The notes: generated by a model from the sequence alone, not told the origin. Shown: positions 3,339 through 30,703, numbered from the stretch's first letter. The stretch: 32,000 nucleotides of DNA from an archaeon (GCA_024277355.1 JAJRVL010000004.1:390001-422000); one strand, 5' to 3'. Program-made: numbers and translations.

Positions 3339-3506
3339 TTACACTGCATTAAGTTTCCTTGAAACCGGTTGAGGTAATTTGCTTATTATTTTATATGCAC
3401 AAGAAGGACATCTGAAAACTCCTTTTGGAATTTCATCGAATTTTTCTCCGCATTTCTGGCATTGATATTTTCCTTCTTTTTTTGCTTCAATTCCTTCTTT
3501 TTTCAT
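3339..3506 (-). CDS. rpoP: DNA-directed RNA polymerase subunit P (Rpo12/RPABC4), 55 aa
   Basis: Not in the ORF track because it is under 60 aa. My translation is MKKEGIEAKKEGKYQCQKCGEKFDEIPKGVFRCPSCAYKIISKLPQPVSRKLNAV. It has a CxxC...CxxC zinc ribbon. Its ATG overlaps the L37ae TGA (ATGA). The position matches the canonical superoperon. Confidence 0.8.
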   Translation of the reverse strand: MKKEGIEAKKEGKYQCQKCGEKFDEIPKGVFRCPSCAYKIISKLPQPVSRKLNAV

Positions 3507-3937
3507 TTCTTTTCCTCCTTAGAATTTTGCTCTTCCTTGTTTTTCTTATCAATTCCTAAAACACTTTTGGCTTTTTTAATTAAATTTTTTTTTTCTGTTT
3601 TTTTTTCTTCTTTTTTTGCTGGTTTTGCTTTTATTTTAATTTCAGTTTCTTCCTGTTCTTCTTCTTTTATTTCAGAAGAAAACTTTTTCTGTGAAACCAT
3701 TTTTTTAATTAAAGAACCAGTCATTGTTTCAGGAACATATGCTCCTCCTGCAAATTCTTTTTTGCATTTAGAACAAAAATAAATTCCTGCTGCTCTTCTT
3801 TTTAAGGTTCCTAAATTACATTCAGGGCATTTCTTTTTCTTTTTCTGCTGTGCTTCAACTTTAATTACCCTTTTTCTTATTCCTACTCCGTATCTTGAGC
3901 CAAATCTTCCTGTTGAATAAACTTTTTTTGTAGTCAT
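3503..3937 (-). CDS. rpl37ae: Ribosomal protein L37ae (eL43) with a ~55-aa K/E-rich C-terminal extension
   Basis: 'GRFGSRYGVGIRKR', 'CPECN...RRAAGIYFCSKCKKEFAGGAY'; AGGTG SD upstream. The tail is low-complexity ('EIKEEEQEETEIKIKAKPAKKEEKK...'). Confidence 0.9.
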   Translation of the reverse strand: MTTKKVYSTGRFGSRYGVGIRKRVIKVEAQQKKKKKCPECNLGTLKRRAAGIYFCSKCKKEFAGGAYVPETMTGSLIKKMVSQKKFSSEIKEEEQEETEIKIKAKPAKKEEKKTEKKNLIKKAKSVLGIDKKNKEEQNSKEEKK

Positions 3938-11414: not shown

Positions 11415-12707
11415 TTATCTGATGCCTCTTACTGCGGCATTTTTTGATTTAAATGAAACTTTTCTTCCTTTAATTGGTTTTTCTTTTTTTGAAGTAGCTT
11501 TCATTTGTTTTTTTGCTGTTTTTATTGCAGCTTGTTTTTCTTTTGCCTGCTTTAATTGATTTACTTCCTGCTTTAATGATTTTGCTTTCATTAAAGCTTC
11601 AATTTTTACTCCCATTTCTTTTGCAAAAGCTTTTTCAAAGTCATCTAATTCCTTCATTTTTGAATCAATTTCTTTAACTCTTTTATTTAATTCTTTTTCT
11701 TTTTCTTCAACCATTAAACTTAATTCTACTTTTTCTTCTTTTATTTCTTCAAGATTTTTTCTTATTGTTTTAATAAAATGCTCTTTAAATACATCTAATT
11801 CCTCTACTTTTTGAGTTAATTCTTTTAGATTAGTATTTTTTATTACTTGTTTCTGGAAAACTTCAAGTTCTTTTTTTCTTTGTGCTGCTATTTCTTCTAA
11901 TTGTTCTTCTGAGTTAGCTGCAGATTCAGCTAACTGGCTTGCAATAAATTTTTTTAATTCAACTTTAGTGTTTTCTAATTCCTGTATTGTTTCATCAACT
12001 TCTTTCTGCAAGCTTATTCTAAATGCCTGCATCTGCATATTCATTTTTTCTGCAAGTTTTTGTGCACTTGAATCAGCTTCAGCTTTTCTTTTTATTTCTT
12101 CAATTTCCTTTATTTTTAGTTTAATTACTTCATCAATTTCATTTTCTTTTTCTCGTATAATATTTGAAATTTTTACTTCAAAATCAGCTGAAAGTTTTTT
12201 TATGTTTTCTTCAGTTTTTTTTGGATTAATTGTTTTAGTTAATTCTTCAAAAGAATTAAGTTTTTTTGTTAAAGTGTTTGAAATCTGTTCAGTTTGTTTT
12301 TTTGTTATTTCCTGAACTTTTTTTTCTGCGTTATTTATTAATCCTTCAGTTATTTTTGATTCTAATTCCAAAGCTTTATTTACTCTGCCGTCTAATTCTT
12401 CAATTTGTTTTGCTGAATCAAACATAAATTGTTTTGATTCATTCTTTAATTCTTCCATTTCATTTTTTAATGCTTTAACTAAATTCATTTTAGATGATTC
12501 TACTTCACTTAATTTAGTTTTTATTTCTGCTAAAACTCTTTCGTCTTCTTTTTCTTTTTCTTCGGTTTTTTTGCTTGCTTCAGAAACAGAAATTTTTAAG
12601 TCTTTTAAAGCAGTAATTTTTGCGTTAAGCTGGGAAAATAATTCTTTTGATTTTTCATTTAAAGAAGAATCAATTTTTTCAGTTAATAATTCTCTTTGAG
12701 ATTCCAT
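11415..12707 (-). CDS. Long K/E-rich coiled-coil protein, C-terminal part; the frame stays open upstream to 12938
   Basis: 430 aa of heptad-like K/E/L-rich sequence. The 77 codons upstream of ATG 12707 are open and similar in composition. They run directly up to the TAA of the preceding ORF, in the same frame. Confidence 0.7.
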   Translation of the reverse strand: MESQRELLTEKIDSSLNEKSKELFSQLNAKITALKDLKISVSEASKKTEEKEKEDERVLAEIKTKLSEVESSKMNLVKALKNEMEELKNESKQFMFDSAKQIEELDGRVNKALELESKITEGLINNAEKKVQEITKKQTEQISNTLTKKLNSFEELTKTINPKKTEENIKKLSADFEVKISNIIREKENEIDEVIKLKIKEIEEIKRKAEADSSAQKLAEKMNMQMQAFRISLQKEVDETIQELENTKVELKKFIASQLAESAANSEEQLEEIAAQRKKELEVFQKQVIKNTNLKELTQKVEELDVFKEHFIKTIRKNLEEIKEEKVELSLMVEEKEKELNKRVKEIDSKMKELDDFEKAFAKEMGVKIEALMKAKSLKQEVNQLKQAKEKQAAIKTAKKQMKATSKKEKPIKGRKVSFKSKNAAVRGIR

Positions 12708-12938
12708 TAAAATCTGAATTTTTTTTGATTCTTTTCCTAATTCTTCCTGAACTTTTGAGTTAATTATCTCATTTATATTATCTCTTATTCTTTCAACTTC
12801 ATCTAATCTTTCATTAACAACCGTTAAAACTCCTTTTTCCCAGACTTCTTTTTCTCCTGCATGAAGTTTTACTTTTGTTTTTTGCTCAAGCTTTTGTTTT
12901 GATAAATCTTTTTCTAAAAGATTTAAAGGTTGTTTTGC

Positions 12939-13220
12939 TTATTCTTTAACTTCTTTTTTAATTTCTTTAATTTCTTCTTTAATTTCTTGTTTTGCTTTTT
13001 CTTCTTCAAGTTTTATTTCTTTTTTTGGTTCAGTTTTTGTTTCCGCTGTTTTTTGTTCGGACTTTTTTTCCAAAAAAGGTTGTTTTGCTTCTCTTAACAG
13101 AATTTTTGCTTCTGTTTTGTCTATTCCAACTTCACTTAAATTAGATAATATTTCATCGTCTGAAACACTTAATGAAAGTAATTTTTTAATGCTTGAAATT
13201 AAAGTTTCTTTATCTGCCAT
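12939..13220 (-). CDS. N-terminal part of the same coiled-coil protein (small helical domain + K/E linker), ended by an in-frame TAA
   Basis: 'MADKETLISSIKKLLSLSVSDDEILSNLSEVGIDKTEAKILLREAKQ' followed by a K/E-rich linker. ATG 13220 is preferred over GTG 13229. The stop at 12939-12941 is in frame with the downstream ORF. Confidence 0.6.
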   Translation of the reverse strand: MADKETLISSIKKLLSLSVSDDEILSNLSEVGIDKTEAKILLREAKQPFLEKKSEQKTAETKTEPKKEIKLEEEKAKQEIKEEIKEIKKEVKE

Positions 13221-13343
13221 AATTCTCACTTGAACTAAAAAATATAACGGTTATAAAATAAAAAGATAACTGAAAGAATATATTGAGTTTATTGCAGTAC
13301 TATCGCAAGATAGTACATCGTCATTAAGGGGCGAAACCATTAA

Positions 13344-13416
13344 TGGACTCTGCGGGACTTGAACCCGCGGCCTCCCGATTGCCAACCGAGCGATCTACCA
13401 ACTGATCTAAGAGCCC
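13344..13416 (-). tRNA. tRNA-Ala (anticodon GGC)
   Basis: Hand-folded from the minus strand. Acceptor GGGCTCT/AGAGTCC carries the G3:U70 Ala identity pair. D-arm GATC-AGTTGGTA-GATC. Anticodon loop TTGGCAA. T-arm GCGGG-TTCAAGT-CCCGC. Discriminator A. No CCA is encoded. Confidence 0.95.
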
Positions 13417-13487
13417 GATAAATAATTAAATTAAATAAAAAGATTAAAAATAGATTTTTTATTGAATAAAGTCTTTTAAAAAAAAAT

Positions 13488-13706
13488 TTAAGGCGCAATG
13501 TAAATTACTGTGTCGCCTCTAATGATTATTTTGCTGTATTTTTTTTTGGTTTCGCCTTCTAATAATTCTTCTGCGTTTTCTAATACAACATTCATATGAA
13601 CATCAAATGCTTTTAGTGTTCCTCTAAAACTTAAGCTTCCTTTAGTTACAACTAAAACTTCTTTTCCTACTGACTCGTTTAATAAATCAAATGGTCTGCT
13701 TGTCAT
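13488..13706 (-). CDS. Sm-like archaeal protein (SmAP/LSm)
   Basis: 72 aa. Sm1 'VLVVTKGSLSFRGTLKAFDVHMNVVLENAEE'; Sm2 'IIIRGDTVIYI'. Confidence 0.9.
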   Translation of the reverse strand: MTSRPFDLLNESVGKEVLVVTKGSLSFRGTLKAFDVHMNVVLENAEELLEGETKKKYSKIIIRGDTVIYIAP

Positions 13707-13710
13707 AAAA

Positions 13711-14604
13711 TCACTCTTCTATTTCAATACTGTCCTCACTTATTTCAGGCACTTCATCAAAAGTTTCTTTTGCTTCTGTTTTTTTTGTTTTGGTTTCTTT
13801 TTTCTTTGAAGAAGGCTTCCTTTTAAAGATAGCAAACAATTTATTTAAAAAACTTATTATGGGATTTTGTTTTTTGATTTTAATTGTTGTTGCAACTCCA
13901 GTTAATTTTTCTGCAATCTGATTAATTGATTCAACTGCTTTTGAATTAGGTTTAAATAAAATTGTAGGCATAATTTTTTCTCTCATAAAAGATTTTCTTA
14001 TATCTTCATCATAAGGAACTAAACCATAAATTGGCAGTTCAAGCATTTTCATTATATCATCAGGAAAAACTTCTCCTTTTTCGTTTCTAACAAAATTAAC
14101 TATTAAACCAATTGGCTTTGCGCCTAATCTTTCAGCTACAATTTTTGTTTTTAATACATCAGCAATTGAAGGAGAAACAGGCATTGTAACTAATAATACG
14201 TTATCTGAAGCACTTAAAGCAGACATTACATTGGTTTCAATTCCAGCAGGAGCATCTAATAAAACATAATCAAAATCTTCTTTGACTGAAGCAATTACTC
14301 CTGCTAATCTTGCTGAATCCACTCTACGATAACTTTCAAAACTTAAACCTGAAGGAACAAAAGAAATCCCTCCTGGACCGTCATAAATTGCATCTTGTAA
14401 AGAGCTCTCCCCTAATAAAACATCATGCAGTGTTATTGGAGAAGACTGCATTCCTAATAATAAACTTAAATTAGCCATTGCTATATCTGCATCAACTAAT
14501 AAAACTTTTTTTCCTCTTTGAGCTAAAGCTATGCCTAAATTTGCTGTAATTGTTGTTTTTCCTACTCCACCTTTTCCTGACGCCAAAGCATAAACTGTTC
14601 CCAT
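13711..14604 (-). CDS. minD: MinD/ParA-family P-loop ATPase (archaeal MinD-like) with a K/E-rich C-terminal tail
   Basis: Deviant Walker A 'SGKGGVGKTT', then 'VLLVDADIAMANL' and 'VLLDAPAG'. The tail is 'KRKPSSKKKETKTKKTEAKE...'. Confidence 0.88.
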   Translation of the reverse strand: MGTVYALASGKGGVGKTTITANLGIALAQRGKKVLLVDADIAMANLSLLLGMQSSPITLHDVLLGESSLQDAIYDGPGGISFVPSGLSFESYRRVDSARLAGVIASVKEDFDYVLLDAPAGIETNVMSALSASDNVLLVTMPVSPSIADVLKTKIVAERLGAKPIGLIVNFVRNEKGEVFPDDIMKMLELPIYGLVPYDEDIRKSFMREKIMPTILFKPNSKAVESINQIAEKLTGVATTIKIKKQNPIISFLNKLFAIFKRKPSSKKKETKTKKTEAKETFDEVPEISEDSIEIEE

Positions 14605-14647
14605 AAATTATTCACTTTTTAATATAACTAAAAGAAATTGTTTGTTA

Positions 14648-15100
14648 TTAAAAGCTTTTTCCTTTAGATAACCTGTCTTCTACTTCTTTTGCTAAAGCAT
14701 TAAATTCAATTGTTGAAAGTGAAGCAGGCGCCCTTACAATAAAAACTTTATTTTTATAAGGCATAATCATATACCATTCATTTGATTTAATTAAAATTGT
14801 TTCAGATCTAGGTATTTCAGATTTAATGTAATTAAACATTGCTGTTCCTGTTATAGCTTCTTTTAAGCTGTTGCCGTTTGCAGTTGAAGCAATAACTGAA
14901 CCATTTTTGCTTGCAACACAAATATTGTCAACTAAATGCTTTTTCTTTAATAAACCTAATAATTTTTTTAAGTCAGTAGTATTAATATTAAAATTATGTT
15001 TTGAAAGAATCTCTGAAATTTCAGTTAACTGTGTCTGAGGAATTCTAGTATTATCTAATCCAAGTAATTTTTGAGCAAAATTTTTAATTGTGTTTGTCAT
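14648..15100 (-). CDS. Hypothetical protein, probable Roadblock/LC7 (MglB-like) domain in the C-terminal ~100 aa
   Basis: The pattern 'VDNICVASKNGSVIASTANGNS...AITGTAMFNYI...ILIKSNEWYMIMPYKNKVFIVRAP' fits the Roadblock alpha/beta pattern. This is a by-eye assignment only. Confidence 0.45.
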   Translation of the reverse strand: MTNTIKNFAQKLLGLDNTRIPQTQLTEISEILSKHNFNINTTDLKKLLGLLKKKHLVDNICVASKNGSVIASTANGNSLKEAITGTAMFNYIKSEIPRSETILIKSNEWYMIMPYKNKVFIVRAPASLSTIEFNALAKEVEDRLSKGKSF

Positions 15101-15152
15101 AAAAAAAACCTAATATCAAAGAAGTGACTAACAATGTTTTTATTGCTTTTTG

Positions 15153-15644
15153 TTAACCCATCTCTCCTAAACCTAATTTCTTCATTATTTCATCTCTTTT
15201 GCTTGAAGACTTTAACACCATAGACAAAACTTTTCTTGCATAACTTGGATTAAAAGTTTTGTGAGTTAATTTTTTTATGTCACTTGGAGAAACATCAACA
15301 TTTAATCTTATTTTTGGGTTAACTGCAATAGTTAATTCTGCGTCAGTTGAACGGAAAGAAATTACATCAAAAACTCCTTGTTCTGCTGAACCAGCATTAA
15401 ATACCTGTGCAATAGCAGAATTACCATTAACTACAACTCCATATTTTAAGTAGTCATAAGAACAGGCAATTATTTTTCCTTCTCTGAAAATTAAAGTTCC
15501 TTCCTCTAAACCATCAAATCCTTCAATTGTAAGATTAACATAACCATTAAACTTTTTTTTAATTAAAGAAACAATTTTTTCACTAAAAGCCGACTGTTTT
15601 AAGCTTATTGTTTGTTCAACTACTCTTCCTTCAACTAACTGCAT
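15153..15644 (-). CDS. Hypothetical protein, DUF4388/DUF2226-like
   Basis: 'FNGYVNLTIEG...EGTLIFREGKIIACSYD...GNSAIAQVFN...GVFDVISF' resembles the DUF4388 signature (tG-L-v...G-i-f--G-iv-A...g-eAl--l...G-F-f). This is a by-eye assignment only. Confidence 0.4.
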   Translation of the reverse strand: MQLVEGRVVEQTISLKQSAFSEKIVSLIKKKFNGYVNLTIEGFDGLEEGTLIFREGKIIACSYDYLKYGVVVNGNSAIAQVFNAGSAEQGVFDVISFRSTDAELTIAVNPKIRLNVDVSPSDIKKLTHKTFNPSYARKVLSMVLKSSSKRDEIMKKLGLGEMG

Positions 15645-15647
15645 TTT

Positions 15648-16112
15648 TTATCCCTTTTTTTTTCCTAAAACAATTACATGATCTGCTGTGTTTTTTAATG
15701 CTGCAGCAGAAGCTTCTTCAGCTAAAACAACTATTGTATCTTTGCCGTATCTTTTTGCTTTTACAAGAACAGGCAAAAAATCAGAATCCCTTGTAACAAA
15801 AGCAATTGAATCAATTGAATTATTAAAAATTGTTTCTGTTGCATCAACCGCCATAAAAACATCAACATCCCCGACAGTAATAATTGGTTCAAATCCCTGA
15901 TTAACTACTGCTTCAATTAATTTATCTGATGCATATTGATTCAAAAAAACTTTTCCTATTTTAATAATTCCAAAAGCACTTAAAGATTTTTTTATTTCGT
16001 CTAAATCAACATTTAATTCTTTTCTTAAAATATTAGGGCCGTCAACAAAAACAGCAATACTTTTTTCAGTTTTTGCTGAACTCTTTTTTCCAAACAAATT
16101 ATCCAAAAACAT
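15648..16112 (-). CDS. NYN-domain (LabA/DUF88-like, PIN-related) putative ribonuclease
   Basis: 'IAVFVDGPNI', 'GDVDVFMAVDA', 'IAFVTRDSDFLPVLVKAKRYGKDTIVV'. ATG 16112 is preferred over the ORF track's TTG 16130. Confidence 0.75.
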   Translation of the reverse strand: MFLDNLFGKKSSAKTEKSIAVFVDGPNILRKELNVDLDEIKKSLSAFGIIKIGKVFLNQYASDKLIEAVVNQGFEPIITVGDVDVFMAVDATETIFNNSIDSIAFVTRDSDFLPVLVKAKRYGKDTIVVLAEEASAAALKNTADHVIVLGKKKG

Positions 16113-16218
16113 TGTCAACCCCAAAAACAATATATATCTTTATACACTTAATTAAAATGACAGGATAAAATTAATAAGATATCATTACTATTGATTTTAA
16201 ACAAAAAAAGGTGATTTT

Positions 16219-16614
16219 TTGGAAAAAAAATTTGTTAAAATAAGCCAATTAAAAGAAAACAGTTATGTATTGATTGATGATGTTGTATGCAGAATAAACA
16301 CAATAGATAAGTCAAAACCAGGAAAACATGGTTCTACTAAAGCAAGAATTACTGCAACTGGAGTTTTTCAAAACACAAAAAAAGGATTACTACAGCCTAC
16401 TTCAGCTGACGCACAAGTTCCAATAATAGAAAAAGGAACAGCACAAGTTGTAGCAGTAATGGGAAATTTACTTCAATTAATGGATACAACAACTTATGTT
16501 AGTTTTACTTCAGACATTCCGGAAGGATTAAAAGGATTAAAATCAGGAGATGAAGTAGAATACATGAAATACGGGGAAAGCGCAAAAGTTTTAAGGAAAA
16601 AAGTAACAGAATAA
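16219..16614 (+). CDS. eif5a: Translation initiation/elongation factor 5A (aIF5A)
   Basis: Hypusine loop 'SKPGKHGSTKARI'. TTG start, with AGGTGAT 6 nt upstream and no in-frame ATG available. Confidence 0.92.
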   Translation: MEKKFVKISQLKENSYVLIDDVVCRINTIDKSKPGKHGSTKARITATGVFQNTKKGLLQPTSADAQVPIIEKGTAQVVAVMGNLLQLMDTTTYVSFTSDIPEGLKGLKSGDEVEYMKYGESAKVLRKKVTE

Positions 16615-17349
16615 TTACTTTTCCTTGGCTTGATTCCATAACAGATTAAATTGTTTTCTGTAAGAGTCAGCTACTTTTTTATTTTCAATTAAAATATAAT
16701 AATTAGGGTTGCCCCATAAAAAAATTCCTACTTTATCTGCATAAACTTCAAAAGCAACATTGCCAAAAACTTCTTTTGGCAAAAACCTTACTTTTGTTAC
16801 AGTTTTAGGATAAAATGGCAAAAAAGCTTGTTTATGCATTATCATTCTTTCTTTTATTTTAAGCCGTTTAGCTCTTGCAAAATACTGATCAAGATAAGTC
16901 ATAAAATGAGGATCGGCTTTAGATAAAAAAGCATCATCAAAACCAAAAATTAATACTTCTTCATTTTTTTTTAATGAAGCAGTTACATCTAACAGCAAAG
17001 TTTTGTAAACAAATCTTCCTTTGTATAATTCAACTTTAATTTCTTCTTCTGAAATTTTCTGGAACGCCTCAAGTTTTGGAACAAGCTCCTGAATTCTTTC
17101 AAGCCTTGATTCAGCCATTTCAATAAGCCTTTTAGGAGAAGCAGCAGTAAAATTTTTTTTTCCTTCAATTAAAACAGAGGAAACAATTTCCTTCTCCATT
17201 AATCTTTCTAAAGCATCATAAATATAAGAACGGGAAAAACCAGTTTTTTTAACGATTAAATGAGGCGAAGAAGTTCCAAGTTTAAGTAAAACCAAATAGA
17301 TCTTTATTTCATTTTCAGTTAAGCCAAATTCTTTTAATTCCTGATCCAT
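16615..17349 (-). CDS. TrmB-family transcriptional regulator
   Basis: N-terminal wHTH 'LTENEIKIYLVLLKLGTSSPHLIVKKTGFSRSYIYDALERLMEKEIV' plus a TrmB-type C-terminal domain. Confidence 0.8.
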   Translation of the reverse strand: MDQELKEFGLTENEIKIYLVLLKLGTSSPHLIVKKTGFSRSYIYDALERLMEKEIVSSVLIEGKKNFTAASPKRLIEMAESRLERIQELVPKLEAFQKISEEEIKVELYKGRFVYKTLLLDVTASLKKNEEVLIFGFDDAFLSKADPHFMTYLDQYFARAKRLKIKERMIMHKQAFLPFYPKTVTKVRFLPKEVFGNVAFEVYADKVGIFLWGNPNYYILIENKKVADSYRKQFNLLWNQAKEK

Positions 17350-17377
17350 AAAAACAATACAGCAAACACATATTTAA

Positions 17378-17401
17378 TTGTCGTAGTTTGAACTACAACA
17401 G
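17378..17401. promoter_or_regulatory. Imperfect palindrome in the trmB divergent promoter region (candidate operator)
   Basis: TTGTCGTAGTT-TG-AACTACAACAG has a perfect GTAGTT/AACTAC core. It lies 29 nt from the trmB ATG and 49 nt from the divergent membrane ORF. Confidence 0.3.
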
Positions 17402-17449
17402 TTAAATAATACTCTTAAAAGCACTAATTTATACATAAAAGGTTTTGTT

Positions 17450-17722
17450 ATGTTGTCTTTAGAATGGATTCCGAAATTGTTTAGTTTGGATTTGCAGTGG
17501 TTTATTGAATTAGCAATGAATAATTTAGTGTGGGTTTTTATGTTTCTTGCAATAACTTTTGTTTTTAATGAAATGAAGTTTTCTCCTAAAATTTTTATTG
17601 TATTAATTTTAGGGTTAATTGGCTTTGAAGAATTTTTAGCTGAAATGGAAATATATTATTTAGTTGCAGGGTTTTTGTTTGTGTTTTATGTACTTGAACT
17701 GATTGTATTAGTTTTTGCATAA
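17450..17722 (+). CDS. Hypothetical multi-pass membrane protein (first of three same-frame segments)
   Basis: Hydrophobic helices are present (VWVFMFLAITFVF, IFIVLILGLIGF, LVAGFLFVFYVLELIVLVFA). It ends at a TAA, after which the same frame stays open. Confidence 0.5.
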   Translation: MLSLEWIPKLFSLDLQWFIELAMNNLVWVFMFLAITFVFNEMKFSPKIFIVLILGLIGFEEFLAEMEIYYLVAGFLFVFYVLELIVLVFA

Positions 17723-17815
17723 ACAATTCCTTCATTAAAAAACAAAATTCCTTTAGTTGAAACAATTTATTTTCTGACAATATTAGGAGTTTATTTTACT
17801 TTTTTAAGTGGTTAA

Positions 17816-17992
17816 ATGATAAAAAAATCTTTAATTCAGGGATTAGTTGTTTGTGCATTAATTTACTTTATCCTGATTTTTTTAAATATTCTTGGAATTA
17901 AATTAGCAAATGAATTTATTTTTTCATTTAACGGAATGCTTTCTTTTTACATTGCAGTGGCAGTAGGAATATTTATGTTTATGAGAATTTAA
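17816..17992 (+). CDS. Small hydrophobic ORF, 58 aa (third same-frame segment)
   Basis: Not in the ORF track. My translation is MIKKSLIQGLVVCALIYFILIFLNILGIKLANEFIFSFNGMLSFYIAVAVGIFMFMRI. Its ATG directly follows TAA 17813-17815 in the same frame as 17450-17722. Confidence 0.4.
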   Translation: MIKKSLIQGLVVCALIYFILIFLNILGIKLANEFIFSFNGMLSFYIAVAVGIFMFMRI

Positions 17993-18006
17993 AGAAAAAA
18001 TTTATT

Positions 18007-19530
18007 TTATTCAATTTTTTTAAATAAAATTTCTGGTTGACCTGTTTTTGTTCCTTCTTTTATTTGATTCCATTTTAAGGTTTCTTCAAATTTCATTGAA
18101 TTAATTCCTAATTGTTTCTGAATTTTTATTGCTGTTTCAGGCATAAAAGGATACAATAAAATACTTGAAACTCTTAAGGATTCAGATAAAGTATAAAGTA
18201 CATTAGCTAATTTTTCTTTTTCTTCTTTTTTAGCTAATTCCCATGGCTTTGAATCATTAATATATTTATTTGATGCATTAATTATTTCCCAGATTAAAGC
18301 TAAAGCTTTATTTAATTGCAGTTCATCAATTAATTTTCCTGTTTCTTCTGCGTTTTTTAAAGTTAAATCCCTTAATTCTTTATCCTGCTTAGAAATATTT
18401 ACTGCTTTAGGAATTTTTCCATCAAAATATTTTTCTATCATCACAATAGATCTATTTAATAAATTCCCTAAACTGTCAGCTAACTCAGAATTAATTCTTT
18501 GAACTAAAGCCTTCTCTGAGTAATCTCCATCTGAACCAAAAGGAATTTCTCTCATTAAAAAATAACGTAAAGCATCAACTGAATATTTTTCGCTTACTTC
18601 TACTGGATCAATTACATTTCCTTTTGACTTAGACATTTTTTGTCCTTCAACTGTAAGCCAGCCGTGACCAAAAACTTTTTTCGGCAAAGGCATTCCGGCA
18701 GACAATAACATTGCAGGCCAGATTACTGCATGAAATCTTACAATTTCTTTTCCCATTAAATGAACATCAGCAGGCCAAATAGATTTGAATTGCTTTGAAT
18801 TACTTCCATAACCAATTGCAGTAATATAATTCAGCAAAGCATCAAACCAGACATAAATTACGTGATTTTTGTTTAAAGGAACAGGAATACCCCATTTAAT
18901 TGAAGTCCTTGAAATAGATAAATCAGTTAACCCTTGTTTAATAAAATTTAATATTTCATTTTTTCTTGTTTCAGGCATTACAACATCAGCACTTTCAATA
19001 TAACCAATTAAAGCCTGTTCATATTTACTTAATTTAAAAAAATAAGATTCTTCTCTCATTATTTGAGTTTCTTTTCCGCATTCAAAACAAAATTTTTCTT
19101 CTTTTAATTGTGCTTTAGTATAATAAGTTTCACAAGGAACACAATAATGTCCTTCATATTCTCCTAAATAAATGTCTCCATTTTCATAAATTTTTTTAAA
19201 GAATTTTATAACTGCTTTTTCATGCATTAAATCAGTTGTACGAATAAAATAATCATAAGAAATATTTAGTTTTTTCCATGCTTCAGTAAAAAAAGGAATT
19301 AATTCATCCAAGAATTCTTTTGGGTTTTTTCCTTTTTCTTCTGCGGCTTTAAATATTTTTTCTCCATGTTCATCTGTTCCAGTAAGAAAAAAAACTTTTT
19401 CTCCTTTAATTCGATGAAATCTGGCTAAAATATCTGCAGATATATTAGTGTAAGCAGAACCAATATGAGGTTTATCGTTTACGTAATATAACGGAGTTGT
19501 AACATAAAATGTATTTTTTATTTTATTCAC
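18007..19530 (-). CDS. metG: Methionyl-tRNA synthetase (no C-terminal Trbp111-like domain)
   Basis: HIGH motif 'PHIGSAYT', KMSKS 'KMSKSKGN', zinc knuckle 'CVPCE...CFECG'. GTG start. Confidence 0.95.
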   Translation of the reverse strand: MNKIKNTFYVTTPLYYVNDKPHIGSAYTNISADILARFHRIKGEKVFFLTGTDEHGEKIFKAAEEKGKNPKEFLDELIPFFTEAWKKLNISYDYFIRTTDLMHEKAVIKFFKKIYENGDIYLGEYEGHYCVPCETYYTKAQLKEEKFCFECGKETQIMREESYFFKLSKYEQALIGYIESADVVMPETRKNEILNFIKQGLTDLSISRTSIKWGIPVPLNKNHVIYVWFDALLNYITAIGYGSNSKQFKSIWPADVHLMGKEIVRFHAVIWPAMLLSAGMPLPKKVFGHGWLTVEGQKMSKSKGNVIDPVEVSEKYSVDALRYFLMREIPFGSDGDYSEKALVQRINSELADSLGNLLNRSIVMIEKYFDGKIPKAVNISKQDKELRDLTLKNAEETGKLIDELQLNKALALIWEIINASNKYINDSKPWELAKKEEKEKLANVLYTLSESLRVSSILLYPFMPETAIKIQKQLGINSMKFEETLKWNQIKEGTKTGQPEILFKKIE

Positions 19531-19604
19531 CTTAAAAAAAAATTACAATACAAAGAGAAAAAAGCTATATATTATTTTGAAAGTTAAACAATTAAAAAAG
19601 GATA

Positions 19605-20309
19605 CTAAAGGTTTCTTATCCCTACTTCATCAAAAAAAGGCTCTAAGATTTTCTTTAATTCCATTAATTTTTCTTTTGCATAAGGTTCTTTATTTTTAAA
19701 TTCAGGATCTAATAAAGGAACTTCATTTCTAAACTGCTGTAAAAAAAAAGCTTTGCTTCCTTTTAACCATTCCCCAATTTTTTTTGCATCTTCCCCAGAA
19801 AAAAATTCAGGAATTATTGTAGTACGGAATTCATAATTTAAACCTGAATTTTTAATTAATTCAATACTTTCTTTTATTTTATTTAAATCAACTTTTACTT
19901 CACATATTTCAGAATATTTTTCTAATGAAGTTTTTATATCCATTGCAATAAAATCAACTAATTTTTTTTCAATTAATTCTTTCAGCATTTCAGGATTAGT
20001 TCCATTTGAATCTAATTTAACTAAAAAACCTTTTTCTTTAATTTTTTTACAAAACTCCGGTAAATCTTTATGCAAAGTAGGTTCTCCGCCTGTAATGCAG
20101 ACTCCTTCCAGCCATTTTTTCTTTGAATCCAAAAAATAAAAAAAATCTTTTTCAGGAAGTTCAGGAGCATCAGAAACAGAAACTAAAGCAGGATTCTGAC
20201 AAAAACCGCAGCGGAAATTACAGCCTTCAGTAAAAACCGTACACGCAACTTTTTCTGGAAAATCAATTAAAGTTGTTTTTTGCAGTCCTTTAATAATCAT
20301 AAAAATCAC
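19605..20309 (-). CDS. nrdG: Anaerobic ribonucleotide reductase activating protein (radical SAM)
   Basis: 'GCNFRCGFCQNP' CX3CX2C cluster and 'ITGGEPTL'. It sits immediately downstream of nrdD. ATG 20300 is an alternative start. Confidence 0.88.
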   Translation of the reverse strand: MIFMIIKGLQKTTLIDFPEKVACTVFTEGCNFRCGFCQNPALVSVSDAPELPEKDFFYFLDSKKKWLEGVCITGGEPTLHKDLPEFCKKIKEKGFLVKLDSNGTNPEMLKELIEKKLVDFIAMDIKTSLEKYSEICEVKVDLNKIKESIELIKNSGLNYEFRTTIIPEFFSGEDAKKIGEWLKGSKAFFLQQFRNEVPLLDPEFKNKEPYAKEKLMELKKILEPFFDEVGIRNL

Positions 20310-20353
20310 ATAAAAAAAATTAATTAAAAAAAAATAAAAAAAAGAAAAAAGAA

Positions 20354-20521
20354 TTAACAGATATTTGTTTCTGTTTTAAATGAATTACACATAGTTTTTT
20401 CTTCATTGTAAGCTAATCTGTCTTTAAATTCTTCTTTTTTTCCTATATTCCAATTCTGTACTGGCCTGTAATAACCAACAATTCTGGAATAAGTTTCGCA
20501 TTGCGAATCACATTTAGTCAT
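20354..20521 (-). CDS. nrdD: NrdD C-terminal glycyl-radical segment (55 aa), in frame with the pieces upstream
   Basis: Not in the ORF track. My translation is MTKCDSQCETYSRIVGYYRPVQNWNIGKKEEFKDRLAYNEEKTMCNSFKTETNIC. 'SRIVGYYRPV..WN.GK..EF.DR' is the class III RNR glycyl-radical motif. GGAGG lies 8 nt upstream of the ATG. Confidence 0.8.
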   Translation of the reverse strand: MTKCDSQCETYSRIVGYYRPVQNWNIGKKEEFKDRLAYNEEKTMCNSFKTETNIC

Positions 20522-20524
20522 TTT

Positions 20525-20800
20525 TTATGCCTCCTTTATTTCTATTTTAATTTTTTCTTTATTTGAATTTACTTTAGATTTATCTTCTGCATTATTACTA
20601 ACAGCTGAAACAGTCATAGGACACTGGAAGTGTTCTCCTTTAACATAACCATGAACCGGACAAACACTAAAAGTCGGAGTAATTGAATAATATGGAAGCC
20701 TTGTATTTTCTGCGATTTTTTTTACTAAAGCTTTGCATGTTTTTCCATCACTTATTTTTTCTCCTAAAAAAGTATGGAAAATTGTTCCGCCGGTATACAA
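20525..20800 (-). CDS. nrdD: NrdD middle segment; the open frame continues upstream to 20821
   Basis: 'YTGGTIFHTFLGE', 'LPYYSITPTFSVCPVHGYVKGEHFQCP'. The ORF track's TTG start has no SD. The segment is bounded by in-frame TAA codons on both sides. Confidence 0.8.
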   Translation of the reverse strand: MYTGGTIFHTFLGEKISDGKTCKALVKKIAENTRLPYYSITPTFSVCPVHGYVKGEHFQCPMTVSAVSNNAEDKSKVNSNKEKIKIEIKEA

Positions 20801-20821
20801 GTGTTGTATTTCATTCTGGTG

Positions 20822-22570
20822 TTATAATGCTTCAATTGCATCTTCTGTATGGCTTACAGGTAATTGAGTTGAATTTGTAAGATAAGGGGTTTCTTCTCCT
20901 GCAGTATAAATTTCAGGATGAGCTTTTTTATCCAACATTGCCAGCCTATATGAAGCTGATTCAGCAGGAGTTGCCTCCAAGTTATATAAATTCTGTGTTT
21001 CTTTCTGGAATTCAAAACATTTATTTCTCATAAAAGTTAATGTTTCAATTGCAAATTGTTTTCCTTCTTCTGAAGAAATATCTTTTCCTAAAAAATTAAC
21101 ACAAGCTTCATTCATTCCGCACAAACCAATAGTTGAAAAATGATTGTTAAAAGTTCCAAGATAAGCTTTAGTATAAGGCATTAAACCATTTTCCAAATTT
21201 TTGTTTATGATTTTTCTTTTAATTTCTAATGAAGTTTTAGCAAAATTCATGTAAGTTTCTATTGCATTAAAGAATTCTTCTTTTGTTTTAGATTCAAAAG
21301 CAATACGATTTACATTAATTGTTACTACTCCAATTGAACCAGTTGCATCCCCAGGACCCCACATTCCTCCAGGCCTGTTAATCAACTGACTGGTATCCAT
21401 GTTTAACCTGCAGCACATTGCCCGAATACTTTTAGGATCTAAATCTGAACCAACATAATTCTGGAAATAAGGAATCCCATATTTTGCAGTAACAGTAAAT
21501 AATAAATCTGCATTATCTGAATTCCAATTAAAAGTTTTAGTTAAATTGTATGTAGGAATAGGAAAAGTAAAAACTCTTCCGTTTGCATCTCCTTCCTGCA
21601 TTACTTCAAGAAAAGCTTTGTTAATCATGTCCATTTCTTTTTGCAAATCCCCGTAAGTAAATTCCTGTTCTTTTCCGCCAACAATTCCTTTATCTTTTTC
21701 TAAATCTTCAGGAACAGTCCAGTCAAAAGTTAAATTAGAAAATGGATACTGTGACCCCCAACGACTTGGAATATTTAAAGAATAAACTAATTCCTGCATG
21801 CATTGTTTTACCTGCCTGTAAGTCATATTATCTGCTCTGACAAAAGGAGCTAATAAAGTGTCAACAGAAGAAAATGCTTGTGCGCCTGCAAACTCCATTT
21901 GCAAGCAACCAATAAAATTCACCATTTGATGAACAACAACATCCATGTGTTTTGCTGGTTTTGCATCAACTTTGTTTGCTACTCCTCCAAAACCTTTAAC
22001 CAATAAGTCTTTCAAAGACCATCCTGCACAATAACCAATAAATCCATGGCTTAAGTCATGAATATGCATATAACCTTTTTTGTAGGCTTCACTTACTTCT
22101 TTTGGATAAATTTGTGTTAAAGCATAACTTGCAATAACTTTTCCTGCTGTGTGAAGAAGTAATCCTGAAAAAGAATAAGCTTCATTTGAATTTTCTTTTA
22201 CTCTCCAGTCATCCTGTTTAAGGTATTCATTTATTGTTTCTTCTACATCAATAAAAGTATCTTTCATTTCTCTTATTTTTGCATGCTGTTCTCTGTACAA
22301 AATATATGCTTTAGCTGTTTTTGCATGACCTTCTTCAACTAAAACTTTTTCAATTATATCCTGCATTTGTTCAACTGAAGGAATATCAGTTCCGGAATCA
22401 AATTTAATTCTTAAAACAAATTCAACTTTGTCTGCAAGTTTTTTTGCTGCTTCAAGGTTTGAGCCTCCAACACTTTTTGCAGCATTAAAAATAGCCTGAA
22501 CTATTTTTTCTTTGTCAAAAGACACTATTTTATTGTTTCTTTTTCTTATGTTCTTTAAATATTCAGCCAT
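20822..22570 (-). CDS. nrdD: Anaerobic ribonucleoside-triphosphate reductase (class III), main body, truncated by an in-frame TAA
   Basis: N-terminal ATP-cone 'KRNNKIVSFDKEKIVQAI', 'HIHDLS', 'MCCRLN', 'LEATPAES', 'TNSTQLPV'. GAGGGG SD lies upstream of ATG 22570, which is preferred over the ORF track's GTG 22594. Confidence 0.92.
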   Translation of the reverse strand: MAEYLKNIRKRNNKIVSFDKEKIVQAIFNAAKSVGGSNLEAAKKLADKVEFVLRIKFDSGTDIPSVEQMQDIIEKVLVEEGHAKTAKAYILYREQHAKIREMKDTFIDVEETINEYLKQDDWRVKENSNEAYSFSGLLLHTAGKVIASYALTQIYPKEVSEAYKKGYMHIHDLSHGFIGYCAGWSLKDLLVKGFGGVANKVDAKPAKHMDVVVHQMVNFIGCLQMEFAGAQAFSSVDTLLAPFVRADNMTYRQVKQCMQELVYSLNIPSRWGSQYPFSNLTFDWTVPEDLEKDKGIVGGKEQEFTYGDLQKEMDMINKAFLEVMQEGDANGRVFTFPIPTYNLTKTFNWNSDNADLLFTVTAKYGIPYFQNYVGSDLDPKSIRAMCCRLNMDTSQLINRPGGMWGPGDATGSIGVVTINVNRIAFESKTKEEFFNAIETYMNFAKTSLEIKRKIINKNLENGLMPYTKAYLGTFNNHFSTIGLCGMNEACVNFLGKDISSEEGKQFAIETLTFMRNKCFEFQKETQNLYNLEATPAESASYRLAMLDKKAHPEIYTAGEETPYLTNSTQLPVSHTEDAIEAL

Positions 22571-28985: not shown

Positions 28986-28994
28986 GTGAAAAAA

Positions 28995-29492
28995 ATGACT
29001 GAAATACAAAAAGTTCAAAAAGAAGTTTCAGCTGAAGCATTAGCAAAAGACTTTAAAGAGCACTCAGTAGCAGAATTCTTTAAAAAAAACAAGCAAATGT
29101 TAGGTTTAAGCGGAAAAATAAGAACTTTAACAACAATAATCCACGAATATGTTACAAACAGTTTAGATGCCTGTGAATCAGCAAACATTCTTCCTGAAAT
29201 AGAAATTAAAATACAGGAATTAGGAACTGAATATTATGAAATTACAATAAAAGATAATGGACCTGGATTAACAAAAGATACAGTAGGAAAAGCTTTAGGA
29301 CAATTACTAGCAGGAACAAAATTCCATAGAATGATTCAAAGCAGAGGACAGCAGGGAATTGGAGCAGCAGGAGCAACAATGTATTCCCAGACAACAACAG
29401 GAAAACCAGTTAAAGTAATTTCAGGAACAGGAAAAGGAAAAGCATTTTCATTAGAATTAACTATTGACCCAAAAAAAATCAGCCAAAAATAG
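28995..29492 (+). CDS. top6B: DNA topoisomerase VI subunit B, N-terminal GHKL ATPase part (frame 0, ends at a TAG created by a frameshift)
   Basis: 'SVAEFFKKN', Bergerat motifs 'EYVTNSLDA', 'DNGPGL', 'GQQGIGAAG'. AAGTGA lies 5 nt upstream of ATG 28995; the ORF track uses GTG 28986. Confidence 0.9.
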
Positions 29493-30703
29493 AAAACTTT
29501 AAAGAAATAGAAAAACCATTTAAAGGATTAGCAATACAGGCAAAAGTAAAAGACGTTTTATTCAGGATTTCAGAACAAGGTGCATTAGAATACATCAGAA
29601 GAACAGCAATAGCTAATCCTCATGTACAAATAAGTTTTATTGACCCAACCGGACAAAAAACATTATTTGAAAGAAGCTCAAAAAAAATTCCAGCTAAAGC
29701 AAAAGAAATAAAACCTCATCCAAAAGGAGTAACAGTAGACGAATTAGTTACTTTAGCAAAATATTCTGATGCAAGAAAAGTAGGGTCATTCCTAAAAAAT
29801 TCTTTTGACAGAATGGGAGACAAAGCAATACAAGAAATAACAAAAATGGTTTCATTTGACATGAATATGGATCCAAAAAGACTTGAATGGAATGACTCAG
29901 AAGAAATCATCAAGGCATTTAAGCATATTAATTTTATTGCACCAACAACAGACGGATTAAGTCCAATTGGAGACGACCAAATTGAAACTTCACTTAAATC
30001 AATTGTTCAGCCAGAATTCTTAAAAGTAATTACAAGAAAACCACAAGTTTACAGCGGAGGATTTCCATTCCAAGTAGAAGTAGCAGTAGCTTTTGGAGGA
30101 AACGCAGGAAGAAGCAACTCAAATGGAAACGGAGAAAATCAAAAAAGAATGGAAGTAATGCGTTTTGCAAACAAAGCTCCTTTATTATTTGACGGGGGAG
30201 GATGTGCAATAACTAAAGCAGTGCAAACAATTGAATGGAAAAGATACGGCATACAAAATATTGATGAAGCACCATTAACTGTTTTTGTAAATATTATTTC
30301 AGTTCATATTCCTTATACTTCAGCAGGAAAACAAGCTATTTCAGATGAAGCAGAAGTATTAGAAGAAATAAGATTAGCTTTAATGGATTCAGGAAGAAAA
30401 ATTTCAAGATTTATTATAGGAAAAAAAAGAGAAAAAGAAAAACAAGCAAAAAGAAAAATGTATATGAAATATGCGATTGAAGTAGCTTATGCAATAGGCG
30501 AATTAACTAAAAAAAACAAAGAAGAAATAGAAAAAAAATTATTAAACATTGTATTAAAAAGACTTAAATTAGAAGAACAAGAAGACAAAAAAGAATTAAG
30601 CGATGAACAAATAGAAAAAGAAATGAAAAAAGAAACAAAAAAACAAGACAAAAAAGAAGAAAAAATTAAAGGAAAAATTAAAGGATTAAAAAAAGTTAAA
30701 TGA
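29477..30703 (+). CDS. top6B: DNA topoisomerase VI subunit B, transducer/C-terminal part (-1 frame relative to the N-terminal part), with a long K/E tail
   Basis: The -1 frame is open from the A8 run through 30703. It encodes '[20 protein letters not shown]', 'IKPHPKGV', '[22 protein letters not shown]', '[12 protein letters not shown]', '[12 protein letters not shown]'. The ORF track begins only at ATG 29813. Confidence 0.88.

Follow-up and report, generated by a model that had tools for sequence, protein, structure and literature searches.

In-frame TAA codons and a split class III NrdD in a segment of an AT-rich archaeal genome

TAA codons and the genes that contain them

A stretch of 32,000 nucleotides from an archaeal genome (GCA_024277355.1, JAJRVL010000004.1:390001-422000; ~29% GC according to its base composition), hereafter called the window, was analyzed with regard to TAA codons that lie between positions 11,415 and 22,570 within or between reading frames for conserved proteins. 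The nearest named relative is a metagenome-assembled genome of the Micrarchaeota (DPANN). An earlier note, made from the sequence alone, had listed five such codons, two in the ribonucleotide reductase gene nrdD, two in an open reading frame (ORF) for a membrane protein and one in a gene for a coiled-coil protein, and had treated all of them as interruptions of otherwise intact frames. The five codons (20822, 20525, 17720, 17813 and 12939) are all present and share the frame of the flanking coding sequence, and their contexts had been quoted correctly to the letter. Three of them, at 20822, 17720 and 12939, are true interruptions, and the remaining two, at 20525 and 17813, are ordinary gene ends; counting the latter as interruptions had raised the number from three to five.

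The window was compared with the related contigs L001, L002, L004, L005 and L006 and with the contig encoding protein P0027; not every gene is present in each of them. L001 is a JGI contig, and the NrdD encoded there is 86% identical to that of the window. A tblastn comparison with 21 proteins of L001 showed that all of them are collinear with the window, and the only defects were the interruptions described here and a frameshift in the Topo VI-B gene. In scans of genome and metagenome contigs with the coiled-coil protein, relatives were obtained at 64–65% identity, plus one at 27%, and nothing closer; a second assembly of the same species was not found in these scans.

The large subunit of NrdD is encoded on the minus strand (20525..22570; 681 codons with one interruption) and consists of an ATP-cone and the NRDD barrel according to Pfam. 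The interrupting TAA (20822..20824, minus strand) occupies a near-invariant glutamate column in the alignment, with Glu in 14 of 16 homologues within the motif EALEHQN, and with this residue restored the protein reads ...DAIEAL[E]HQNEIQHLYTGGTIFHTFLGEK. At the matching position, L001 has GAG, and L004 as well as L005 have GAA. The suggestion that a GAA codon had been converted to TAA was borne out at this site, and it is also consistent with the consensus Glu at 17720 in the membrane protein gene. Otherwise, the NrdD of the window shows two singleton deviations at invariant columns; the homologues range from 1 to 8, and the comparison is without power either way.

A conserved gene for a membrane protein of ~120 aa, likewise with one interruption, is located on the plus strand (17450..17815). 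When 1.8 billion representative proteins were scanned in full with HMMER, ~50 homologues of the membrane ORF were detected. These proteins have a length of 97–130 aa (mostly 118–126) and correspond to residues 1–~120 of the read-through product; with few exceptions, the match extends to residue ~112–121. A separate family of 58-aa proteins, represented by P0122 (58 aa, 84% identical), P0145, P0146 and P0155, matches residues 123–180 only. Furthermore, L006 (3463-4548) possesses two tandem pairs of 120-aa and 56/58-aa genes. Because the 120-aa and the 58-aa proteins are distinct families and are paired as separate genes in L006, the TAA at 17813 (17813..17815, plus strand) is a normal stop–start junction (TAAATG) and the genuine terminator of the 120-aa gene, which agrees with the ends of the homologues. 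The conserved membrane protein of 58 aa is encoded directly behind it (17816..17992, plus strand) and had been called as gene P0178 in the source genome. The TAA at 17720 (17720..17722, plus strand) is a true in-frame stop within the 120-aa gene; the alignment showed Glu as the consensus of this column (11 of 19 homologues, including the closest one, P0121).

The pair of genes for hydrophobic proteins of 120 aa and 58 aa forms a conserved module, which is duplicated in tandem in L006, and neither protein matched a Pfam family. Together with a gene for a TrmB-family regulator (244 aa, minus strand), it makes up a block (16615-17992) between the genes for MetRS and aIF5A. The membrane ORF and the TrmB gene are not present in the loci L001–L004, and in the syntenic L001 the gap between MetRS and aIF5A comprises only 98 nt; the block is therefore a lineage-specific insertion. 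This insertion hosts one of the three interruptions (17720).

The third interrupted gene encodes a coiled-coil protein (11415..13220, minus strand; ~601 codons). Its orthologues are intact in L001 (18976-20739, 587 aa) and L002 (9680-11452), and the regions on both sides of the stop are conserved. The protein of ~590–600 aa has an N-terminal domain that is small and highly conserved (MADKETLxSSIKKLLSLxVS...EAKILLREAK), a linker of variable sequence rich in Lys and Glu and a conserved C-terminal region with ...AVRGIR. According to sequence and alignment, the TAA (12939..12941, minus strand) is a true in-frame stop in this linker, and since the site belongs to a lineage-specific insertion, the ancestral codon is unreadable. 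The coiled-coil protein matched no Pfam family, and its relatives in the scans belonged to the Micrarchaeota and Iainarchaeota only.

A further defect, just beyond the range of the earlier note and missed there, was found in the Topo VI-B gene (28986..30703, plus strand). Pfam assigned the HATPase_c part (28986–29492) and the transducer part (29813–30703) to two ORFs in different frames. The orthologue in L001 is intact (563 aa), and its tblastn alignment to the window jumps from frame 3 to frame 2. A run of eight A residues (29471..29478, plus strand) is present where nine are needed; one additional A at this position restores the reading frame, as judged by comparison with LTIDPKKNEPKIENLKDIDK in L001. 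The defect is thus a −1 frameshift at the site of a one-base deletion.

The split NrdD

The second TAA of the nrdD region (20525..20527, minus strand) is followed by a separate gene of 55 aa (20354..20521, minus strand), which had been annotated in the source genome as a gene of its own (P0180) and encodes the glycyl-radical domain of NrdD (MTKCDSQCETYSRIVGYYRP...; Pfam NRDD). The junction reads ...AAAGGAGGCA TAA AAA ATG, and a Shine-Dalgarno-like sequence AAGGAGG (20530..20536, minus strand), read directly from the DNA, is located 8 nt upstream of the ATG of the small gene at 20521. When the three nrdD pieces of the window were analyzed with Pfam, the ATP-cone was detected and the pieces covered positions 1–457, 460–526 and 526–562 of the NRDD profile.

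The large subunit is 82–86% identical to P0002–P0004 (671–689 aa) and has the same end point. In the alignment of the ten closest NrdD homologues (70–86% identical, 670–689 aa), all proteins stop just past GEHFxCP and are devoid of the C-terminal YSRIVGY. In L001 (10001-12180), an nrdD gene for 671 aa is followed by a 55-aa NRDD-domain gene, which is read in a different frame and shares 4 nt with it; L004 (287-2520) exhibits the same arrangement with a 4-nt overlap in another frame. On the contig of P0027, a 10-nt spacer shifts the small gene to another frame, and L002 (9-182) opens with the small nrdD gene bearing its own ATG. The TAA at 20525 is therefore the natural end of a split NrdD, because the closest homologues end there, the small gene has its own Shine-Dalgarno sequence and ATG, and the junctions of the relatives are out of frame. 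The second ORF thus possesses a start codon and a ribosome-binding site, and the junctions in the relatives are incompatible with readthrough. That the small gene lies in the same frame in the window is a coincidence; three further same-frame TAA junctions occur between unrelated genes of the window (NYN/DUF2226, DUF424/aIF1A and KH/TopoVI-B). At 20525 as well as at 17813, the ribosome would stop normally, and the next gene would share the frame by chance.

Stand-alone small glycyl-radical proteins gave 272 database matches. The 120 matches listed have 41–96 aa; several of the small proteins come from contigs of 50–364 kb, and some bear the label Micrarchaeota or Diapherotrites. These small proteins share the motif MxKCx3CE[VT]YSRIVGY, often with a C-terminal Cys. 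In the alignment, the distance to YSR is identical for the first Cys of the small subunit (C-x6-Y-S-R) and for the Cys that closes the CPxC knuckle of unsplit homologues, and the large subunit retains C-x2-H...C-P. By these spacings, NrdD appears to be broken between the third and the fourth zinc ligand, i.e. inside the zinc site, and a shared zinc site may clamp both chains together. The glycyl-radical domain is predicted to be an obligate separate subunit of ~55 aa in this DPANN clade, and the two parts, both of which are conserved, may form an active enzyme together.

No description of a class III NrdD with the glycyl-radical domain as a separate gene was found in the literature searches, which yielded only the split class II enzyme NrdJa/b and nrdD genes of phages that are interrupted by introns or inteins (PMC3653736). 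NrdJa/NrdJb (cited in PMC9669993) is similar in that the catalytic chain is distributed over two adjacent ORFs with a C-terminal metal-binding or turnover module on the second. It differs from the enzyme of the window, which belongs to class III, in which the glycyl-radical domain of 55 aa itself has been detached and whose break lies, by alignment, between the third and the fourth zinc ligand. Among the genuine features of this analysis, the split NrdD is biologically the most interesting one. It could serve as a tidy system for investigating docking of the glycyl-radical domain, activation by NrdG and possible replacement after oxygen damage. GrcA/YfiD is a stand-alone glycyl-radical "spare part" of pyruvate formate-lyase, which rescues the full-length enzyme after cleavage by oxygen. 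In both cases, a small stand-alone glycyl-radical protein complements a large barrel subunit. The large subunit encoded in the window, in contrast, lacks such a domain, and the small protein would therefore be an obligate subunit.

Several close NrdD homologues (P0005-P0007, P0046, P0071 and P0089) have a length of 976–1104 aa. P0007 and P0089 carry intein/LAGLIDADG domains according to Pfam (PF14890, PF14528); inteins thus also occur frequently in the NrdD of this group.

As the lineage already tolerates a split of NrdD in front of the glycyl-radical domain, the three true interruptions might be regarded as further natural splits with a restart after each TAA, so that NrdD would consist of three polypeptides and the coiled-coil and the membrane protein of two each. 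Downstream of the TAA codons at 20822 and 17720, however, neither ATG or GTG nor a Shine-Dalgarno sequence was found. Behind 12939, 77 codons without an in-frame ATG, GTG or TTG follow, as the earlier note had already reported, and the first possible start, the ATG at 12707, is located within the conserved block GEKEVWEKG; a Shine-Dalgarno sequence is lacking behind this TAA as well. Moreover, none of the relatives is split at any of the three positions, and this explanation is extremely improbable.

Reading of TAA and origin of the lesions

It is very likely that the five TAA codons represent two gene boundaries (20525 and 17813) and private single-base lesions, and that no programmed recoding takes place. 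The codons at 20822, 17720 and 12939 would then be isolated single-base lesions in otherwise conserved genes, and the ribosome would read TAA as a stop throughout. Among the 35 supported genes of the window, 26 are terminated by TAA, five by TGA and four by TAG. TAA thus ends 74% of these genes, whereas a reassigned codon would be expected to be rare or absent as a terminator. At least nine of the terminating TAA codons stand precisely where the L001 orthologue has its C-terminus. A second stop directly behind a TAA terminator was observed in 2 of 26 cases, and ~2.1 are expected from the base composition.

That the interruptions are "never TAG or TGA" had been taken as a signal, but it is not significant. 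With the codon usage of the window, 56–61% of random nonsense substitutions yield TAA, and 71% if only G>T and C>A changes are considered. The TAA-only pattern is therefore to be expected, and three TAA codons out of three have a probability of ~0.2–0.36. Split genes in combination with AT-rich codon usage can thus mimic a TAA-only recoding.

For programmed readthrough, conservation of the stop in the orthologues would be expected, and sense codons or intact genes were found at all three sites. Downstream RNA structure was assessed by folding 123 nt (the stop codon and 120 nt downstream) at the three true TAA codons, and nothing beyond shuffled sequence was detected (z = −0.80, −1.15 and +0.10). 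A shared sequence or methylation-like motif beyond ATAA was likewise absent around the three codons; their contexts differ, in agreement with the earlier observation that a common motif is lacking. A suppressor tRNA was not detected in the window, in which only tRNA-Val(GAC) and tRNA-Ala(GGC) are encoded. The proposal of TAA readthrough or of a suppressor tRNA is hence unsupported: TAA is the predominant terminator, the sites are private, and neither context nor structure nor a tRNA in the window points in this direction.

The three nonsense codons and the homopolymer −1 frameshift in the Topo VI-B gene are all absent from L001, L002, L004 and L005 where compared. As these four lesions are private to the assembly and occur once per gene without further decay, they are best read as base-level defects of this sequence. 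At least one of them would be a GAA>TAA change, as judged from the codons of the relatives, and a second one probably is as well. Of the explanations proposed in the earlier note, both recent nonsense mutations and consensus errors or population heterogeneity fit the three true TAA codons. Consensus errors, or minority variants and population heterogeneity captured in the assembly, are somewhat favored as the source of the lesions. Between the two, we infer that such errors or variants are the more likely source, followed by recent real mutation.

Several points weigh against these conclusions. Two of the three true in-frame TAA codons can be aligned and both fall in Glu columns, and the third is located in the unalignable linker. 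The probability of two Glu columns out of two is ~0.06 for uniform nonsense mutation and ~0.15 for an illustrative AT-biased weighting. This is also what decoding of TAA as Glu would predict, and it is suggestive but weak; GAA accounts for 25% of the codons one step from TAA and is the second most abundant among them. The sequence past each stop is as well conserved as the sequence before it, which readthrough would predict likewise. The stop counts and the tRNA search covered the 32,000-nt window. With regard to consensus error, only 1 of 61 homopolymers of at least 8 nt in the window disrupts a gene (the A run of Topo VI-B), and the assembly is thus generally accurate. In addition, three substitutions and one indel are not the profile typical of any sequencing platform: errors of long reads are mostly indels, and Illumina reads have almost none.

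The Glu columns (14/16 in NrdD and 11/19 in the membrane protein) speak for a dual meaning of TAA, in which the codon would be the usual terminator and some internal sites would be decoded as glutamate by a dedicated or mutated tRNA with the anticodon UUA or owing to weakened recognition by aRF1. Apart from the interruptions, the affected genes are intact and conserved, and NrdD depends on its C-terminal parts for its function. Furthermore, C or G follows two of the three internal TAA codons, and A or T follows 24 of the 26 terminating ones. To our knowledge, the nuclear code of Blastocrithidia is the only one in which UAA means both Glu and stop. In this organism, in-frame stops are abundant in many genes and are served by cognate tRNAs. 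It provides a eukaryotic precedent, with UAR read as Glu and UAA also used as terminator (PMC12153298), and resembles the window in that in-frame UAA codons occur at Glu positions alongside UAA terminators. The organism investigated here, in contrast, is an archaeon with only three sites in ~9,200 codons, none of which is conserved in any relative, and without a cognate tRNA in the window. The use of TAA at the C-termini of orthologues without an excess of back-up stops and the lack of a common context or structure also argue against a dual meaning, and the frameshift in Topo VI-B, a neighbouring essential gene, suggests that the lesions arose by a generic process. A nonsense codon is commonly reached from GAA by the single step to TAA, and in-frame stops of pseudogenes arise preferentially from particular codons (Codetta paper, PMC8629427). 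A dual meaning of TAA is therefore very unlikely. If it were true, Glu would be inserted at internal TAA codons at a low frequency, all three interrupted genes would still yield functional proteins, and this would be the first sense decoding of TAA in a prokaryote.

Alternatively, and with a lower probability than consensus error, the three TAA codons and the Topo VI-B frameshift could possibly be genuine mutations of very recent date, either fixed or segregating, in a DPANN archaeon that is AT-rich and poor in repair. The genes would then be freshly inactivated, or partly functional because TAA is read through at a basal level by near-cognate tRNAs and transcription slips on the A run, neither of which would be programmed. 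The single suspect among the 61 long homopolymers argues against a consensus that is error-prone in general. G:C>T:A and other GC>AT changes are expected in a genome with 29% GC, and the abundance of GAA one step from TAA fits as well. The absence of decay past any of the lesions indicates that the mutations would be young or tolerated, and in-frame stops under continuing purifying selection have been reported to be widespread in bacteria (PMC7918605). On the other hand, four independent knock-outs among ~38 genes would each need a very recent origin, with no second lesion in any of these genes and with the likely essential NrdD and Topo VI-B included. Such simultaneous fresh knock-outs of four genes without secondary decay argue against old real lesions, and the closest relative is free of lesions across the same 21 orthologues. 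If the lesions were real, NrdD and Topo VI-B would be defective simultaneously, which would raise the question of how the cells survive; leaky decoding, slippage during transcription or reliance on a host would be conceivable.

In-frame stops in prokaryotic genes have several sources, namely artefacts of annotation, errors, pseudogenes and, occasionally, stops that are tolerated (Belinky et al. 2021, PMC7918605). The lesions of the window resemble these interrupted genes in that a single one-base defect occurs per conserved gene and is absent from the orthologues, in the mixture of three nonsense codons and one homopolymer indel, and in a stop type as predicted by codon usage. They differ in their unusually high density (~4 in 38 genes, probably essential ones included) and in that substitutions outnumber indels. 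The TAA feature itself is ordinary. With the apparent recoding of TAA in an archaeon dissolved into two same-frame junctions and three private lesions, a false lead is avoided.

Other features of the window

Similarity and Pfam analyses assigned a number of housekeeping genes to the window, encoding components of the exosome, the proteasome alpha subunit, L15e, L37ae, aIF1A/2β/5A, MCM, MetRS, NrdD/NrdG and Topo VI A/B. A truncated DUF424 gene in L001 was considered as a control lesion and rejected, as it represents an issue of start codon annotation and no lesion. The L37ae gene (3503-3937, minus strand) encodes a protein of 144 aa, in which the Pfam domain L37ae covers residues 2–82 and the remaining ~60 residues form a C-terminal extension rich in Lys and Glu.

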